From: a virus
DNA length: 35,932 bases
Reading direction: 5' to 3' (one strand)
Virus genome (UHGV): UHGV-1541349
Part shown: in pieces, positions 1 through 30,881 of the stretch
Layout: every line of letters begins with the position of its first letter
How positions within the stretch are numbered: position 1 is the stretch's first letter
The notes under the pieces: model-generated
Told to the model about the DNA's origin: nothing
The model's input: only the letters and a program-made list of their open reading frames with translations
Databases searched by the model: none
Position numbers and translations under genes: made by a program

Positions 1-81
1 TTGCCCACCTCAATTTTAACTGATTATTGATATTGAAAACTCGTACTTTTAACTGATACAGATATTTAGGAAACCATAAAT

Positions 82-447
82 TTATTTGTCCAAGATTCTA
101 TCCATAATATTTCTTAGTTCTTGTCTGGTTGATTCTATTTTAGCAAGCAACGTTTTGATCAATGAGGGTGAAAAATCAACTGTGCGTGGATCGTTAGCTA
201 ACCACAGTTTAAGTAACCCACCAAGTCGACCAAGATCAGCATTTACTCGGCTAAGCTCTACAACCTGTTCAATATCTACAATAGACTCAACCTGATAACC
301 CATTGCTACTTTACGAATGAAGCTCGCTACACTTAAGCCAGATGCTTCTGCATTTTCCTGGATTTGCGCTTTTTCATCTGGCAAACAATAAACTTTAATT
401 GGTGTACTATTTTTTCTAGTCTGAGAAACGGTCATATCATTCTCCAT
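82..447 (-). CDS. Ribbon-helix-helix relaxosome accessory protein, MobC-like (putative)
   Basis: N-terminal RHH-like segment (IKVYCLPDEKAQIQENAEASGLSVASFIR) and C-terminal LGRLGG motif resembling the MobC family. Family assignment is from motif recall only. Any relaxase partner would lie beyond the window start. Confidence 0.4.
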   Translation of the reverse strand: MENDMTVSQTRKNSTPIKVYCLPDEKAQIQENAEASGLSVASFIRKVAMGYQVESIVDIEQVVELSRVNADLGRLGGLLKLWLANDPRTVDFSPSLIKTLLAKIESTRQELRNIMDRILDK

Positions 448-717
448 ACAGGCGGTAGCCGATCAGCCTCGCAGAGCAGGACTCCGTTGAGCAGCCCAGC
501 TGCTAATAAGAGAAGGTAAAGTAGAAGCACCGTTTACGGTGGGCCTACTTTACATGTCCTGCCCTACATTTGCCGTTGTGAATCTGTGTACGTATTGTGT
601 ATTCCTGTGTACTCAGTGTGTTTTCCTAAAGCATTTGTGCAGGATTAGTAGTGTAAAAATGTGCAGCATATGTGTTTATTGGAAGGGAAATTATTTGAAT
701 GACCCTAAGAAATATTT

Positions 718-1011
718 TTATTCTCGCGGCTTGGGTTTTGGCGGCCTGCCACGTTTCCTTTGAAACCTATTTATCTCTTTCGCTATATCGTCATTTTCTG
801 TCTTTGACTCAACAGATTTATCTATCCAATCCTTAACATCTTCTCTACGCCAGAGAAGACGTTTATTACCGGGAAGACGGCATCTTGGTGGAAGACATTT
901 TGGATTTCGCGTTGCATCACTGCGGATACTTTTTACAGTTTTCTTTAATGCAAAAGCCAACTCTTCAACGGTTATAAGTTCTGGCATAACTGATTTCATC
1001 GAAGAACCCAT
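718..1011 (-). CDS. AlpA-family HTH regulator / excisionase-like DNA-binding protein
   Basis: Small basic protein with an AlpA/Xis-like HTH (ITVEELAFALKKTVKSIRSD...LPGNKRLLWRREDVKDWID). Typical of integrative elements. Exact start uncertain. Confidence 0.55.
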   Translation of the reverse strand: MGSSMKSVMPELITVEELAFALKKTVKSIRSDATRNPKCLPPRCRLPGNKRLLWRREDVKDWIDKSVESKTENDDIAKEINRFQRKRGRPPKPKPRE

Positions 1012-1036
1012 CTCTCAGTAGAAATTTGAGGATTTT

Positions 1037-1058
1037 AGCGGCTAAAATTTTAGCCGCT
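1037..1058. promoter_or_regulatory. Perfect 22-bp palindrome (agcggctaaaattttagccgct), candidate operator upstream of the AlpA-like gene
   Basis: Read directly from the sequence, 26 bp upstream of the AlpA-like start at 1011. The operator role is inferred. Confidence 0.4.
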
Positions 1059-1311
1059 AAAGTTTGCTAACCAACGTTATGAATTGAGAATAATTAAAAC
1101 TTACTGGCAAAAAGAATAATGTCAACAGGATTTTTATTCATCGGATTTTTACTCCATATGAAATTGGTTTTATTGACCGATTTCTGAATGACACTAAGGT
1201 TTTAATAATTCCTTTAATCTTTTTGGTTATATAAAAGGTTAAAGATCAGGTTAGAGAGGTGTGGAAAAGCGATATATTCATTTGTATATTATGACAATTT
1301 TAAATTATATC

Positions 1312-1372
1312 CGTACCTCAAATGTCATGAAAGCGTACCTCATATGTCATAAAGGCGTACCTCATATGTCAT
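1312..1372. repeat. Three tandem 17-bp direct repeats (cgtacctcaWatgtcat) with 22-bp phasing; iteron-like
   Basis: Copies at 1312-1328, 1334-1350 and 1356-1372 inside a roughly 900-bp AT-rich non-coding stretch. A consensus DnaA box (ttatccaca, minus strand) lies at 1422-1430. Confidence 0.8.
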
Positions 1373-1920
1373 ATAATAAAAAATAAGCAAACAAGTTATA
1401 CACAATATTATTCACAGAATCTGTGGATAAATACACAGATTATACATGATAAAATAGATTGTTTAGCTAAACTAAATAGCAATAAATAAAATGAAACAAA
1501 ATGTAAATAACAGAGAGTTGTAGATAACTTATAAATTTGGTTAGCTAACCTTTATAAGAAACACTGTTTGTAAAAGATTCATTTCTGACAACGGATATAT
1601 CGAAATTTAGTAAGTAAAATGCCACAGCTAAATCTTTTATATCATTTGTTTAGCTATACTATTTTTACTAAGGGTTATGTATATCTAAACTACAAAAACA
1701 GCAATGCAAAAGATAAACGGGTAACAATCGTAGAAAAGCTTTGTTGCTGAGGGGTTACCCTCATTGGAAACCGGCTTGAGATAAGTATCATATGAGGATA
1801 TCAAATCCGACTGGTGAGGCCAGGTTTGATAATTTGAAGCGCTGGACGTAGCGTAGATGCCACAATAGAGGAGACAATAGTAAATTAAATTATAAGATAA
1901 ATGCAGATTTTTGTTTCGCT

Positions 1921-2235
1921 ATGAAGTTATCACTGAAGATAAAGTATTCTAAGATAGATGAATGTGAGGTTGCCATGACAACGATGAAAGCTAGACCCAG
2001 TTCTGTTGCGGATATTCTTTTAAATGAGTATTTGAAACCTTTAGCTATGTCTTCACGTGACTTAGCTAATTTGATGGGAGTACCTTATAGCAGAATTGAC
2101 GATATATTACGACACTCTAAAAATATAAGTAATAGAGAGGGGGAATTACTTTCTAAAATCTTCAATACTGATAGCGATTTTTGGATAAAACTTCAAGAAA
2201 ACTATATAAATCATACATGCAAATTCCATAAATAG
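1921..2235 (+). CDS. HigA-like XRE-family HTH protein (antitoxin-like), no cognate toxin seen
   Basis: HTH resembling HigA/VapI antidotes (SRDLANLMGVPYSRIDDILRHSKNISNREGELLSKIF..FW). True start may be the internal Met at 1975. No HigB/RelE-like ORF is adjacent. Confidence 0.5.
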   Translation: MKLSLKIKYSKIDECEVAMTTMKARPSSVADILLNEYLKPLAMSSRDLANLMGVPYSRIDDILRHSKNISNREGELLSKIFNTDSDFWIKLQENYINHTCKFHK

Positions 2236-2499
2236 TGCATAAACGCTAACTTAAGGCATATATTATTTGTACTACGCCGTTGTATTAAAGAGAGATATCA
2301 AGCAACAAAAATCAACTATAATAGGTAAAAAATCAGTATGAAGGAATTATCACAATCTGCACGATGGTTCTAATATAAATTTAGTAAAATAAAACATAAA
2401 TCATTTCCGTATAAAAAGATGGCCAGGTCTTTATCATCGACCCAGCCAATTAGTAAAGGATTTTTCATTTCAAACTCATTAAACCTTAGGCATAAAACC

Positions 2500-4989
2500 T
2501 TAATGTTCAATATCTATTTGATTATCAATTTGAATAATGTTTTGAATCTCACTGTAAATATCAATGTTCTCATCTGGTACATCTATGCTAACCAATAAAC
2601 TATATTTAACATTGTTAATATAGCGATCCTGCGCAGTACGATATTTCCACCATCCACCAACAGGATAGACAGCGATAGTATTCATCTCTGTTAAATCTGC
2701 AGCACTGCCTTTCCAAGCATCTGAGTGTAATGAACCTCTAACTCTGAGTTGAGGCCCCAGAAACCATCCTGACGCATCTCCTTCAGGTCCATTGTATTCT
2801 TCATTATTCGCATTACGGTTTATCGAAGCACGGAAATTTTCAAGGGTCTGATTAGGTCTAATAACTGCAAATCTCAATCCATGAGATTGATACGAATATT
2901 GTCGTCTGAATCCTTTTTGACTTGGATTAGGTTCAATAAAATACGACAATGTGATTCTTAAAATAACATTTGTTTCTGGTGGTAGTAAGCGAAGAGCTTC
3001 TACGGGCCAAGGGAGTGAAAACAGATGCATTTCATTCAATGTAGGATCAGTAGAACCATCTCTTTTAAATGGGGTGATTTCCGACTGAGATATTAATGTA
3101 AGTGCATTTTCCGCACTATGCATTGCTCGATTTAAATTAGGTACTCCATAACCAACCATCCTTAATAAGCTTTCTTTAGCCGATTTTGGTGTCCCCTGTG
3201 CACGTTCTGTTCTATATCGTTCGTGCATACGACTAGTCCATCTTGCTGTATGAACAAGTAATCCCCTAATAGTTTCAGGCCAATATTCTGGGTACTGAGC
3301 CATTAGCATAGCAGCATGTTTTGATACTAGAGCACAGGCTGCGCTAGTATCTGAATTAACTTCAAACAATTGATTTGTTGCCCTGCCAGAGGTTGTGAGC
3401 AAAGATAATTCAATTGTATTTGTGATTTCATCACGGCTAGGTGATATAAGTTTGTTTCCGCCTTCCTCTACTAAATCTGGCTTATATGGGGCATGCTTTT
3501 TCCATCCCCAGGATACCGATGACCGAGATGACGGTGCAATATCTTCTGACATAGCGAAAGGAGACCAACCATCATATTCGCGGTCTGTATGGGTTGTTTT
3601 ATCAGTATACGCCCCTACAGTTAATGCATTCCAAGATTGAGCAGGATCTTCAATTTCAGCAAGAGTCACTGAATCCCAATAATCTAATTCTAAATTTGTA
3701 GGTTGAGAGTTACCCGCAGAAATTATAAATAATCTGCGGATATCATCCTCTAAACCAAAACTAAACTTGTCAATCTCTGCAGACCATGAGGACGGTTGGC
3801 CTCCAAGAGTATTAGGCTCTGCTGTCACAGCAAGCGAATAAACTCTGCGCCAGTTCGGGTTTTCCAGCTCCAGACGACTTGACGTTCCTGTAGTAATAGC
3901 TCCATAAAGATTAGGATCATTAGTAGCTCTTGGAGGTAGTATCCTTCCTGATTCGATATTGTACGGAATCGAAATGTCCTGATCGTTCAATAAAACAGAC
4001 AGGAAATCTCCATAAACACATAGTCCTGCTTGTCTGGAACCGTGGTCATTATAAGGCCTTTGATTATAATCATCGAAAAGTGGCCAAGATATGTCCCAAG
4101 CAGCTGCCAGTGATGAGTTAGTAAATCTAGATAATAGTGGATTATTGTAGTTAACACCTGTATCTAATATACAAACAGAAACATCAGCTTCATTGTTACG
4201 CGTAATTCTTGCAGCAACATTTTCTGCCCACTGATGCTGTTCTGTAGGTAAGGAATTAACTATAACTGATATATCATCCCTCGCTGATCTTATCTCTTTT
4301 AAATTAGATATTAATTCAGGACAAACTTTTAATCTCGATAGACTCGTACGGATAAGAACAACAGTAGTATCGAAAAAATTAATAGAAGTATTCCCGAGCC
4401 TTCCATTAATTCTTTCGCATAAACGCCGAGCAATATTTAGCACATCCTCCTTATTACCCTTAAGCCAAAGCTCAAACCACTTTTCAACACCGTGATCATC
4501 CGGAATAAGATCTTTTTTATCTGTCCAGAAAGAAGTTATATCTGCTAACTCGATATTTTGTATGCTATCAATTAACAAATGATTTCTAGGGAACTCGATA
4601 CCATCCTTCGATGGATTCAAATAGTCATTTATTTTTTTAGTGAATTTAGTTCTGTCATTTTCATTAATGTATATAATCGCAGTTTCACGATTATTTGATT
4701 TAACTAAAGAACAAAGCTTGAAATAAGTATTATCGATTTTATCTATAGGAAGATCGCATTGTTCAAAACTGATTAGCCTAACATAAATCCCTTTTTCATC
4801 AGTAACAGGGGGAAGCCTCGGTCTTTCATCATAATGATTCAATATACGGCTATACTGATTTAGTAATGATATACCATGTACCGCTCGATCACGAGCTGGG
4901 ACTTGGGGACTACGACCATTGCTCCTAGAGCGATAGTTTTCGGGGGAAACATAGCCGTTTAATAAAATATGCCTCTTGTTGGTAGTCAT
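2500..4989 (-). CDS. ietS: Subtilisin-like S8 serine peptidase with N- and C-terminal extensions (IetS-like)
   Basis: S8 catalytic motifs in the correct order: D (VCILDTGVN), H (NDHGSRQAG), S (DTSAACALVSKHAAM). Lies 9 bp downstream of an AAA ATPase on the same strand, the architecture of the IetAS defense pair. Symbol is by architecture only. Confidence 0.7.
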   Translation of the reverse strand: MTTNKRHILLNGYVSPENYRSRSNGRSPQVPARDRAVHGISLLNQYSRILNHYDERPRLPPVTDEKGIYVRLISFEQCDLPIDKIDNTYFKLCSLVKSNNRETAIIYINENDRTKFTKKINDYLNPSKDGIEFPRNHLLIDSIQNIELADITSFWTDKKDLIPDDHGVEKWFELWLKGNKEDVLNIARRLCERINGRLGNTSINFFDTTVVLIRTSLSRLKVCPELISNLKEIRSARDDISVIVNSLPTEQHQWAENVAARITRNNEADVSVCILDTGVNYNNPLLSRFTNSSLAAAWDISWPLFDDYNQRPYNDHGSRQAGLCVYGDFLSVLLNDQDISIPYNIESGRILPPRATNDPNLYGAITTGTSSRLELENPNWRRVYSLAVTAEPNTLGGQPSSWSAEIDKFSFGLEDDIRRLFIISAGNSQPTNLELDYWDSVTLAEIEDPAQSWNALTVGAYTDKTTHTDREYDGWSPFAMSEDIAPSSRSSVSWGWKKHAPYKPDLVEEGGNKLISPSRDEITNTIELSLLTTSGRATNQLFEVNSDTSAACALVSKHAAMLMAQYPEYWPETIRGLLVHTARWTSRMHERYRTERAQGTPKSAKESLLRMVGYGVPNLNRAMHSAENALTLISQSEITPFKRDGSTDPTLNEMHLFSLPWPVEALRLLPPETNVILRITLSYFIEPNPSQKGFRRQYSYQSHGLRFAVIRPNQTLENFRASINRNANNEEYNGPEGDASGWFLGPQLRVRGSLHSDAWKGSAADLTEMNTIAVYPVGGWWKYRTAQDRYINNVKYSLLVSIDVPDENIDIYSEIQNIIQIDNQIDIEH

Positions 4990-4997
4990 TTCATCCC

Positions 4998-5984
4998 TTA
5001 TTGTCTACTTTCTTGCCTACGCTTTATAGCCTTTACTAACAAATCGGTTGTAATATTGTTTGCATTATAAAGCACTGATTCTTTGGCAGCATCTTCACTT
5101 GCTCGCGTGATCTCCGCTGCACTTAGACCTGAAGCACTATCAATGATCTCACTCCAAAATAAATTACCGAGGTCAAAGACAGCGAGTCTCTGTTCAATAA
5201 GATTCCTGATTAGATTATCCTCAGGCCTTGTGAACGGTATAATATCGTCAAATCGTCTATATAAGGCGCGATCTAAAAGCTCTGGATGATTGGTTGCAGC
5301 TAAAACTATGCTCTCAGAATCATCCTGCTCTACAAACATTAAAAAAGAATTTAAGACCCTACGAATTTCTCCAACGTCATTCTGAGCGCCACGCTGAGTT
5401 CCTATAGCATCGAACTCGTCAAAAAAATATACAGCTCTTGTTTGCCGTATGTGGTCAAAAATTAAACGCAGCTTAGCTGCAGTTTCACCCATATAGCGAG
5501 TGATTAGATTATCTAAGACGACTGTATAAAGTGGTAGCTTTAACTCTGTAGCAATGACTGATGCGGACATTGTCTTACCAGTACCGGGAGGACCAGTGAA
5601 AAGAATTTTTCTTCTTGGAATAAGCCCAAACTCAGAAAGTTTATCTTTCTGTTTTTGTTCAAGCAGAACCTGATTCAATCTTTCCCTAACGCTTCCAGAA
5701 ATCACCAGATCTTGAAGATGTACTGGCTTGTTCGTTTGCTCAAGTAACCCCTTAAGATCACCATCAGGCTGCTTAACAAATGGTGTAAGTCGTTTTTCAA
5801 CTAAACCTACAGAACTCGTTGTTTTCTGATTTTTATCAACTAAGTTTTTTATATCATTAGCAAGCTTATGATGACCTTGCCTTGCTTCCTTAGCTGCCAC
5901 CTGCAAAGCAATAGAAAAGAAACGCTGATCATCACGATCAACGTGGCTTTTCAATAAAGCTTTGATCTGCTCTGCAGTAGCCAT
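4998..5984 (-). CDS. ietA: AAA-family ATPase (IetA-like)
   Basis: Walker A GPPGTGKT and Walker B VYFFDEFD in a classical AAA fold. First gene of a two-gene operon with the S8 peptidase. Confidence 0.7.
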   Translation of the reverse strand: MATAEQIKALLKSHVDRDDQRFFSIALQVAAKEARQGHHKLANDIKNLVDKNQKTTSSVGLVEKRLTPFVKQPDGDLKGLLEQTNKPVHLQDLVISGSVRERLNQVLLEQKQKDKLSEFGLIPRRKILFTGPPGTGKTMSASVIATELKLPLYTVVLDNLITRYMGETAAKLRLIFDHIRQTRAVYFFDEFDAIGTQRGAQNDVGEIRRVLNSFLMFVEQDDSESIVLAATNHPELLDRALYRRFDDIIPFTRPEDNLIRNLIEQRLAVFDLGNLFWSEIIDSASGLSAAEITRASEDAAKESVLYNANNITTDLLVKAIKRRQESRQ

Positions 5985-6448
5985 AACCCCTCATACTCCC
6001 TTGTTCTCTTGTTGCAAAGTTTACTATAAATTCATTTAGTTCGACATCGTTACCTACCTGCTCATTACAGGAAAGTAATACCTTCATGAGCGTATCATCA
6101 ATGATCAAAGTGTAATCAAACACCTAGGCATAGTACCTTCACTACGTGAACTGTATCACTCATTGTTATGTAACCTGAGTGTCCCTTTCTGGCACTTAGC
6201 TCTATCGGATAATGTATTTAAGCTGTTAATTTATAAGATTTTTCATCACTAAACTGTCTTTCATGCAACGCATCGATAAGGTCAACACATTACGTTTATA
6301 AGGAAGTAGTTTGTTTAGCGTAATGATGCAAATGCTGACCAATTAGCTTTGCCACAATTTTGCCACACCTACAACGCGCAAAATTGCACATTAGTGTTGA
6401 ACAAAGCAAAATACTGCAATAGTAACTTGATGATTTTACGAGAAAAGA

Positions 6449-6494
6449 TGGTGCCGATAATAGGAGTCGAACCTACGACCTTCGCATTACGAAT
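6449..6494 (-). other. 46-nt 3' fragment of tRNA-Thr (thrW-like, anticodon loop to CCA): prophage attachment-site core
   Basis: Minus-strand sequence attcgtaatgcgaaggtcgtaggttcgactcctattatcggcacca matches the 3' part of enterobacterial tRNA-Thr(CGU) as recalled, then diverges 5' of the anticodon loop. Typical of an att junction distal to the integrase. Confidence 0.7.
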
Positions 6495-30725: not shown

Positions 30726-30801
30726 TGGTGCTGGTTAACGGACTTGAACCGCTACCCATTCGCTTACAAGGCGACTGCTCTACCATTGGAGCTAAACCAG
30801 C
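30726..30801 (-). tRNA. Phage-encoded tRNA, anticodon UGU (Thr-like)
   Basis: 76 nt ending in CCA. Manual fold gives 7-bp acceptor, D and T arms, and anticodon loop CTTGTAA. Anticodon assignment is manual and unverified. Confidence 0.55.
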
Positions 30802-30806
30802 ATGTT

Positions 30807-30881
30807 TGGCGGGACAGCGTGGACTCGAACCACGATAAGAAGGTTAACAGCCTTCCGTAATGACCTTTATACGACTGACCC
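30807..30881 (-). tRNA. Phage-encoded tRNA, anticodon GUU (Asn-like), one acceptor-stem mismatch
   Basis: 75 nt ending in CCA. Perfect anticodon stem GAAGG/CCTTC with loop CTGTTAA, T-stem CGTGG/CCACG, and a T.T mismatch at acceptor pair 4-69. Confidence 0.5.

Follow-up and report, generated by a model that had tools for sequence, protein, structure and literature searches.

A toxin-less HigA-family gene in a thrW island that carries signals of IncP-like helper plasmids

Introduction

Orphan antitoxins, antidotes encoded without a poison of their own, are common in genome annotations and are usually dismissed as debris. That they act as anti-addiction modules is an accepted hypothesis, put forward for pVbh and for the leading regions of plasmids, and chromosomal antitoxins offer an example in the CcdA of Erwinia, which neutralises the CcdB of the F plasmid (PMC7354431, PMC11541004). 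The present work concerns one such gene, a higA-like reading frame at positions 1921–2235 of UHGV virus genome UHGV-1541349, a stretch of 35,932 nucleotides which in its full length we call the window. This gene is conserved and selectively kept, and it lies in an island inserted at thrW in the chromosome of E. coli.

The closest described islands are the PIMEs (Perta et al., bioRxiv 2026, 10.64898/2026.01.12.698999), IncP-dependent chromosomal islands rich in immune cargo; a replicase of their own, repA, was a criterion in the search for them. According to the same preprint the helper signal and the sensing regulators of PIMEs are still unidentified, and it mentions no HigA, antitoxins, KorA or KorB. 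In our analysis, we put a probability of about 0.9 on the gene being a toxin-less HigA gene of helper-plasmid lineage and a component of the thrW island. That it serves as an orphan antidote and/or repressor toward the HigBA pair of the helper plasmid, and would protect from post-segregational killing, is our favoured but tentative explanation, at about 0.4.

A HigA-family gene without a toxin partner

An earlier note, made from the letters of the window alone, had placed a HigA/XRE-type helix-turn-helix protein at 1921–2235. The longest open reading frame (ORF) there (forward strand, 104 aa) is real and of that type, but its start most likely has to be moved to the ATG at 1975, for a product of 86 aa. 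We favour this start because four observations agree on it: a GAGG motif stands 5 nt before this ATG, with no ribosome-binding site at 1921; RefSeq places the start at 1975 in genomes that are 100% identical (protein WP_023277292.1); the residue equivalent to this start is the first residue of every homologous allele; and in an independent locus (L006) the DNA homology opens only at about 1937, past the ATG at 1921. The longer frame matches the TIGR02607 family, “HigA family addiction module antitoxin”, with 53.7 bits against a curated cut-off of 47.7 (E 1.4e-14, residues 24–95), while the match to Pfam HTH_3 is weak; RefSeq already annotates the product as a HigA-family antitoxin. Searched with phmmer against the PDB sequences, the product finds YbaQ first (2EBY, 1.2e-9), then the HigA of P. 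aeruginosa (7CSV, 1.2e-6; 6JPI, 1.4e-6), VapI (3TRB, 6e-6) and GraA (6F8S, 3e-5). These matches to solved HigA proteins settle the question of the predicted HigA fold.

Close relatives of the protein are few. Only 10 matches below 1e-10 were obtained among 1.84 billion representative proteins, the nearest non-identical one at 49% identity, and a word-index protein search returned near-identical proteins only. Among the best matches are proteins of about 390–410 aa (P0007-P0010, P0013-P0015) with three to four tandem HigA-like helix-turn-helix repeats. A more distant HigA (P0017) lies directly upstream of a Trypco1/trypsin-like protease (VMAP) conflict system (L015, 2501–4643), a further HigA-type gene adjoining a protease-based system.

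The gene is truly without a toxin partner. Neither strand of 1012–1974 holds an ORF of at least 60 aa, and the longest has 43 aa, in keeping with the earlier note's remark that only very short ORFs lie upstream; the small toxin ORF with a non-canonical start that the note had named as its refutation was looked for in this stretch with ATG, GTG and TTG starts, and none of at least 60 aa was found. The 43-aa ORF at 1619–1750 was considered as a toxin and rejected, since it is unconserved and overlaps a conserved KorA site. A Pfam search at E ≤ 10 over the X-masked six-frame translation of 1012–1980 and the three forward frames of 2230–2510 gave no toxin family. With the canonical HigB (L016) and the HigB of an IncP plasmid as queries, tblastn, the check proposed in the note, gave nothing better than E = 0.23. 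A HigB profile, built with jackhmmer from the HigB-like ORFs that adjoin distant HigA genes, had zero matches in the whole 35.9-kb window and eleven related loci; its positive control, the plasmid HigB, was found at 8e-18 and scores 86.8 bits on PF05015. A HigB-like ORF stands directly upstream of higA in 67 of 72 distant loci versus 0 of 8 loci of the clade of the present gene. The distant loci, which serve only as a control of HigB adjacency, came from a scan of a genome collection with the alignment of the clade and were picked in other phyla by a generic C-terminal pattern. Because these loci and the plasmid HigB are recovered, the toxin searches have power, and the orphan status which the note had proposed is borne out by all four of them.

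A fixed component of the thrW island

Positions 1–6494 of the window are 100% identical to the chromosome of E. coli ECONIH4, beside tRNA-Thr (thrW) and proA, and what the window holds here is an integrative mobilizable element (IME) inserted at thrW, which the note had not recognised. In the intact relatives (L002, L003, L094 and L095) the complete element has about 11–16 kb, a length set by the cargo, and its order is integrase, one or more variable genes, a gene of the VbhA family (in most copies), trbL, a gene for a 57-aa lipoprotein, trbJ, traJ, a gene at the alpA position, a non-coding stretch, higA, variable cargo and tRNA-Thr. Each of the nine thrW-type variants that were read has one higA and no toxin, in the same place and orientation, between the plasmid-like region and the swappable anti-phage cargo.

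Five alleles of the gene were seen. Allele W accompanies IetAS (the window and L001). Allele A, the common one (protein WP_001748229.1), stands beside a methyltransferase/HEPN/DUF262 cargo (L002), Hachiman and FRG (L003), a DEAD helicase and others (L007) or a NACHT protein (L094), and its copies are 86–95% identical beside these four unrelated cargos. Allele B goes with a DndB-like protein and a methyltransferase (L010, L011), allele C with GAPS4 (L013) and allele D with retron Ec78 (L095). The alleles are about 37–54% identical to each other; the adjoining backbone is 83–95% identical. The TIGR02607 cut-off is also passed by the genes of L002, L011 and L095, and by that of L096, a PIME described below; the gene of L013, which has an aberrant N-terminus, fails it at 30.7 bits. 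A survey of 5,426 complete E. coli genomes gave about 93 chromosomal copies of the backbone (66 with allele A and 20 with allele W, none on a plasmid), and an annotated higA is kept in about 86 of them. Within alleles, dN/dS is 0.28–0.49, a figure based on few substitutions. These comparisons mark higA as a fixed component of the thrW island under purifying selection.

A HigA domain is also present in PIME1_EcPF16, an island at guaA, where it opens the accessory region, directly behind trbL and ahead of the defence cargo. The protein in question (L096, 13797–14225) has 142 aa. Its C-terminal half is the HigA domain (65 bits on TIGR02607), and its N-terminal half, which nearly reproduces the VbhA-family protein of the IncP-like plasmid treated below, bears a VbhA-like Fic-antitoxin motif, AEASLRLEGMDPS, that differs little from the one in the VbhA of this plasmid; the Pfam VbhA match of the fusion protein is weak, at E 0.027. 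Near this fusion there is neither a Fic nor a HigB toxin.

Signals of IncP-like helper plasmids

The non-coding stretch before higA, 960 bp long, holds a set of signals that resemble those of IncP plasmids (Table 1). The nonamer at 1422–1430, TGTGGATAA, is a DnaA box, the reverse complement of the consensus TTATCCACA. Three iterons lie nearby, and they were at first guessed to be of IncX/R6K type. This guess was dropped: the matching plasmids, 41–72 kb in size, carry trfA, trb, kor and kle and are therefore IncP-like. None of the thrW islands that were read carries an annotated rep gene; they have instead the three iterons of the trfA-oriV kind. The operators were scanned with the consensus sequences OA, GTTTAGCTAAAC, and OB, TTTAGC(C/G)GCTAAA (PMC2680271). 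Next to the perfect OA the window has near copies at 1539, 1648 and 1679, that is, one perfect and three near OA sites within 230 bp; the chance expectation of OA-like sites is 1.2 in the whole window. Kor operator sites, putative and assigned by sequence, are present at all thrW-type island loci and also at L096. In L002, L007, L094, L011 and L013 the third KorA-type site is perfect and stands 44–85 bp upstream of higA; that of L095, likewise perfect, lies about 290 bp before the gene, and L003 has a degenerate one. It may be that the island, being without a replicase, borrows TrfA and is controlled by the KorA and KorB of an IncP-like helper.

One more sequence of this stretch, CAACGGATATATCGAA at 1590–1603 (conserved CGGATATATCG, about 1592–1602), is invariant across the six very divergent island loci that were aligned. 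It may resemble the TrbA operator, CGATATATCG, but no assignment is made.

The group of plasmids to which these signals point is exemplified by pMCR_WCHEC1622 (L093), a complete IncP-like plasmid with 13 OB and 2 OA sites, whose korAp and trfAp promoters have the classic arrangement OB-TTGACC-N17-TAAACT. Its TrbJ is 90.6% identical to that of the island, its TraJ 63%, its TrbL 56% and its VbhA 44%. From the shared operators and these identities in Trb, TraJ and VbhA it follows that the island is wired to this plasmid group. The kinship extends to HigA. The best matches in the plasmid collection are the HigA of a genuine HigB-HigA pair, at 43% for allele W and 51–54% for allele A, and the island alleles are no closer to one another than to this plasmid HigA. 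The pair sits about 1 kb from the oriV iterons of the IncP plasmids, and ardR and klcA come after it. In the 5,426 E. coli genomes a complete higBA occurs on plasmids only; the chromosomes have the higA-like sequence alone.

A proposed antidote toward the helper plasmid

The explanation we favour is that the island keeps only the antidote half of a helper-type HigBA. The island HigA would bind helper-type HigB and/or repress the helper higBA operon, and a cell that bears the island would thereby survive the loss or displacement of the helper plasmid. Through the KorA site found upstream of higA in most variants, the KorA of the helper would hold higA down and release it when the plasmid is lost. 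An anti-addiction role, one of the readings offered in the note, is the most attractive, because the closest kin of the gene among plasmids is the higA of a true HigB-HigA pair, carried by the very plasmids whose signals the island mimics. A related island is reported to reduce the amplification of its helper pB10 (10.64898/2026.01.12.698999), and this would be a reason to need protection from post-segregational killing. The explanation is made more plausible by the iterons and Kor operators of the island, which could titrate helper proteins, and by its small lipoprotein, placed where trbK would be.

It is worth setting out what weighs against this explanation. The window's allele W is just 43% identical to the sole plasmid allele found, and PLSDB has no plasmid HigA more than 60% identical to either of the two island alleles tested. 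The higBA of E. coli plasmids is near-uniform (97.7–100%) while the island alleles are highly diverse. The last 16 residues or so of the plasmid HigA are missing from the island proteins. In the window itself, the KorA-type site before higA is imperfect and 315 bp away. The IncP-1 helpers used experimentally with related islands, pB10 and pKJK5, are not known to carry HigBA. Finally, that higA opens the accessory region in two island families is just as compatible with a role tied to the cargo or intrinsic to the island.

A broader version, in which IncP-hijacking islands systematically carry toxin-less antitoxins of helper families (HigA together with VbhA, the latter separate or, in PIME1, fused to HigA), seems to us rather doubtful. 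In this version, antitoxins wired to the KorA/KorB operators of the helper would allow a satellite to interfere with its helper, to exclude it or to outlive it, with no post-segregational killing set off, and an arms race with helper toxins would explain why the alleles of higA have diversified so strongly. The island higA is a concrete, testable case of an anti-addiction role that has long been proposed and rarely demonstrated.

Other explanations

The alternative that survives best, nearly as likely as the antidote, is a DNA-binding regulator intrinsic to the island, in which a toxin has no part: it would be autoregulated and control island genes or the read-through into the accessory (defence) slot, the left edge of which higA marks. 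The divergent alleles would then behave like immunity types. Such a regulator would suit a gene that keeps the same place between backbone and cargo in both island families, and the divergence of the alleles beside a well-conserved backbone is of the kind seen in phage immunity regions. A C-terminus shorter than that of the toxin-partnered plasmid HigA also agrees with it, and so does the closest solved structure, YbaQ, a solo HigA-like regulator. Furthermore, the helper-sensing regulators of the related PIMEs are still to be identified, and a conserved terminator-like block, element X, adjoins higA. This block is downstream of higA in the common allele (L002, 10166–10229) and upstream of it in the window and in the retron variant (L095, 8794–8855); in the IetAS and retron variants a unit of higA plus cargo seems to occupy the cargo slot, the resident higA having been lost.

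Several observations speak against such an intrinsic regulator. No convincing allele-specific palindrome was found upstream of the window higA, the best having a 6-bp arm, and the palindromes that are conserved are the KorA/KorB operators of the helper, not HigA-specific ones. One allele faces four unrelated cargos, and HigA therefore cannot be tuned to cargo promoters; in this common allele there is, moreover, a terminator between higA and the cargo.

The earlier note had suggested that the protein might act on the convergent IetAS-like cassette. The cassette is there, recognised by PADLOC (Table 1), and higA and ietS do travel together into one other context: a metagenomic contig without the island backbone (L006) shares higA, the spacer and ietS at about 90–95% DNA identity, starting 38 bp before higA and with an IetS 97% identical, and in a parallel case allele D and the convergent retron Ec78 operon are 96.5% identical between the island L095 and a different locus, L009. 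One could thus picture HigA as a dedicated partner that represses ietAS or neutralises its toxicity in a three-gene defence module, but this is improbable. In four genomes with an IetAS 100% identical to that of the window (H88-H91) higA has been deleted by IS1, although another higA allele may be present elsewhere, and H87 has a second, independent deletion. IetAS is broken by IS insertion or frameshift about equally often in the two situations, in 3 of 20 cases with higA and in 2 of 7 without. The genes are convergent, with the ietA promoter 3.7 kb off, and PADLOC and NCBIfam match IetA and IetS in the cassette and no third gene. The L006 higA (5093–5305) is itself frameshifted: a 1-bp deletion in a G-run (window 2145–2150), either a real pseudogene or a homopolymer error of metagenome assembly, leaves a truncated product of 70 aa. 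The segments shared with L006 and L009 run from higA to the thrW attachment end, and they may therefore be decayed islands and not mobile modules. Since an identical IetAS persists without higA and homologues of the gene adjoin other cargos, higA is probably not an IetAS gene, and in work on defence systems it should not be counted as the third one.

As for the toxin–antitoxin remnant which the note had also considered, namely an island derived from an integrated IncP-like plasmid that lost higB and whose higA drifts without function, loss of the toxin first is the expected route of decay, the dN/dS speaks for moderate constraint only and is based on few substitutions, damage is suspected in two copies (a frameshift in L006, an odd N-terminus in L013) and the ECONIH4-type island is riddled with IS1, but this reading is poorly compatible, and as improbable as the preceding one, with one toxin-less higA in every thrW-type variant read, across five such divergent alleles, with the curated cut-off passed by every allele except L013, with no toxin trace in any of them, with a gene kept in nearly all E. 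coli backbone copies and with the HigA domain that a second island family retains in fused form.

The island in the window

The features of the island are collected in Table 1. Those by which PIMEs are recognised are found in the thrW island as well: traJ, the oriT motif, the alpA-position gene and the cargo in the window itself, and int, trbJ and trbL in its intact relatives. The lipoprotein gene of these relatives is in the position of trbK (entry exclusion), an assignment by position and size only. The sequence after the inverted repeat of oriT is nic-like by the consensus of RP4 (TCCTG/C, 8 nt past the repeat). If the RP4 rules apply, the + strand would be transferred, and the alpA-position gene, oriV, higA and the cargo would be the leading region. 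No known RNA family was found in the 960-bp gap; the only one, traJ-II, lies further left. A promoter scan gave fewer matches than in shuffled sequences, with one weak site at 1764–1791.

Table 1. Coordinates of the island features in the window.
Feature	Position	Strand	Remarks
TraJ, oriT-binding relaxosome protein (NikA-like)	82–447	-	NF010451, 163 bits; 62.5% to pMCR_WCHEC1622 TraJ
traJ-II RNA motif/oriT region	465–564	-	87 bits; 18-bp inverted repeat 516–533/536–553, then nic-like ATGTCCTGC
AlpA-position small basic protein	718–1011	-	97-aa ORF, 93 aa as annotated; no family match
Two tandem perfect KorB operators (OB)	1034–1061		TTTAGCGGCTAAA and TTTAGCCGCTAAA; 0.02 expected by chance
Three 22-bp direct repeats (iterons)	1312–1377	+	90–92% over 59 bp to oriV beside trfA of IncP-1-like plasmids
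DnaA box TGTGGATAA	1422–1430		Reverse complement of the consensus TTATCCACA
Perfect KorA operator (OA) GTTTAGCTAAAC	1461–1472		Operator scan
KorA-operator-like palindrome GGTTAGCTAACC	1539–1550		2 mismatches
KorA-operator-like palindrome GTTTAGCTATAC	1648–1659		1 mismatch; homology to the backbone of other variants stops directly behind it
Allele-specific segment	1660–1974		From last KorA-operator-like site to higA; no ORF above 43 aa, no toxin similarity
Element X, conserved terminator-like block	1807–1868	+	CCGACTGGTGAG ... CCACAATAG
5' extension of the longest ORF	1921–1974	+	Probably untranslated: no ribosome-binding site, unconserved in L006 and other alleles
Ribosome-binding site GAGG	1966–1969	+	Read from the sequence
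higA-like coding sequence (probable start)	1975–2235	+	86 aa, XRE/helix-turn-helix, TIGR02607; stop TAG 2233–2235
Convergent higA-ietS intergenic spacer	2236–2499		No toxin ORF
IetS-like S8 peptidase, defence cargo	2500–4989	-	PADLOC IetS, 116 bits; Peptidase_S8
IetA-like AAA ATPase, defence cargo	4998–5984	-	PADLOC IetA, 258 bits
tRNA-Thr (thrW), 3' part, island attachment end	6449–6494	-	Identity to ECONIH4 stops here

The island of ECONIH4 (L001, 12240–18019) has decayed. It is riddled with IS1, its VbhA gene is partial, its integrase is gone and a segment with corA, bounded by IS1, interrupts its trbL. In several other genomes IS1 deletions take out everything to the left of ietS. In the separate VbhA-family genes of thrW islands (L003, 5111–5311; L094, 4096–4323) the S-x-x-x-E-G motif has become SLYLSG and SLFLSS, with its inhibitory glutamate lost, and what precedes these genes is a multi-pass membrane protein and not a Fic protein. 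Just outside the integrase end RefSeq annotates a “tRNA-Ser” of 112 nt (L002, 2488–2599; L003, 2929–3040; L094, 1999–2110); it is unusual in length and may be related to the attachment site. From 6494 on, inside tRNA-Thr, a prophage follows in tandem with the island, with tail-fibre and tail-fibre-assembly genes from 6720 onwards. In this prophage-derived part of the window (6495–35932) there are a tRNA-Thr(TGT) and a tRNA-Asn at 30726–30881.

Comparison with known systems

Much of what is described here is already known: the HigA annotation in RefSeq, orphan antitoxins, the anti-addiction idea and, since 2026, IncP-dependent islands. In the searchable literature we found no report of a constant toxin-less higA at the backbone/cargo junction of such islands, none of a kinship between the island higA and the HigBA of helper plasmids, and none of KorA/KorB operators in the islands or of TrfA-type iterons that replace the replicase in those at thrW. 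It is the system-level observation on the higA of the thrW island that we consider a useful lead.

Compared with the canonical HigBA systems, such as those of Rts1 and P. aeruginosa (7CSV, 6JPI) and GraTA (6F8S), the island HigA is of the same helix-turn-helix family and the same size. The canonical systems have a toxin-first bicistron, as in the distant loci used as a control above, and the island gene is without it. The solved structure that matches best, YbaQ of E. coli (2EBY), is similar in length and has limited identity, with only the family in common. YbaQ is a stand-alone HigA-like regulator, encoded by a core-genome gene with no known role outside mobile elements.

Closer to the island protein is the HigA of pMCR_WCHEC1622 (WP_003019666.1, with the toxin WP_071443968.1), which belongs to the same TIGR02607 clade. 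Plasmid and island proteins share the N-terminal motifs “EPTTVGEML.EEFLKPL” and “F.TD.DFW..LQ”, and both genes lie within about 0.6–1 kb of TrfA-type iterons, which are inverted relative to the island gene. The plasmid higA has a PF05015 HigB upstream, across a gap of 8 bp, and continues as an operon into ardR, whereas the island higA has no toxin; the plasmid protein, of 102 aa, has a C-terminus some 16 residues longer than the island one. With the known anti-addiction cases the island gene shares an antidote without its own poison, related to a toxin–antitoxin pair on a competing or helper plasmid. Of those cases, CcdA has been tested and the others sit on plasmids; the gene described here belongs to a satellite-like island of the plasmid, and cross-neutralisation would have to work at 43–54% identity.

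Among islands, the PIMEs and the thrW island are alike in int, alpA, traJ/oriT, trbJ, trbL and a large immune cargo, and PIME1_EcPF16 even has a toxin-less HigA domain at its trbL/cargo junction. The thrW island differs in its site, which is thrW and not guaA, and in having neither repA nor a luxR-type gene, but TrfA-type iterons instead. These iterons, together with the Kor operators, hint at the means by which such islands detect and use their helper, the question which the PIME study had left open.

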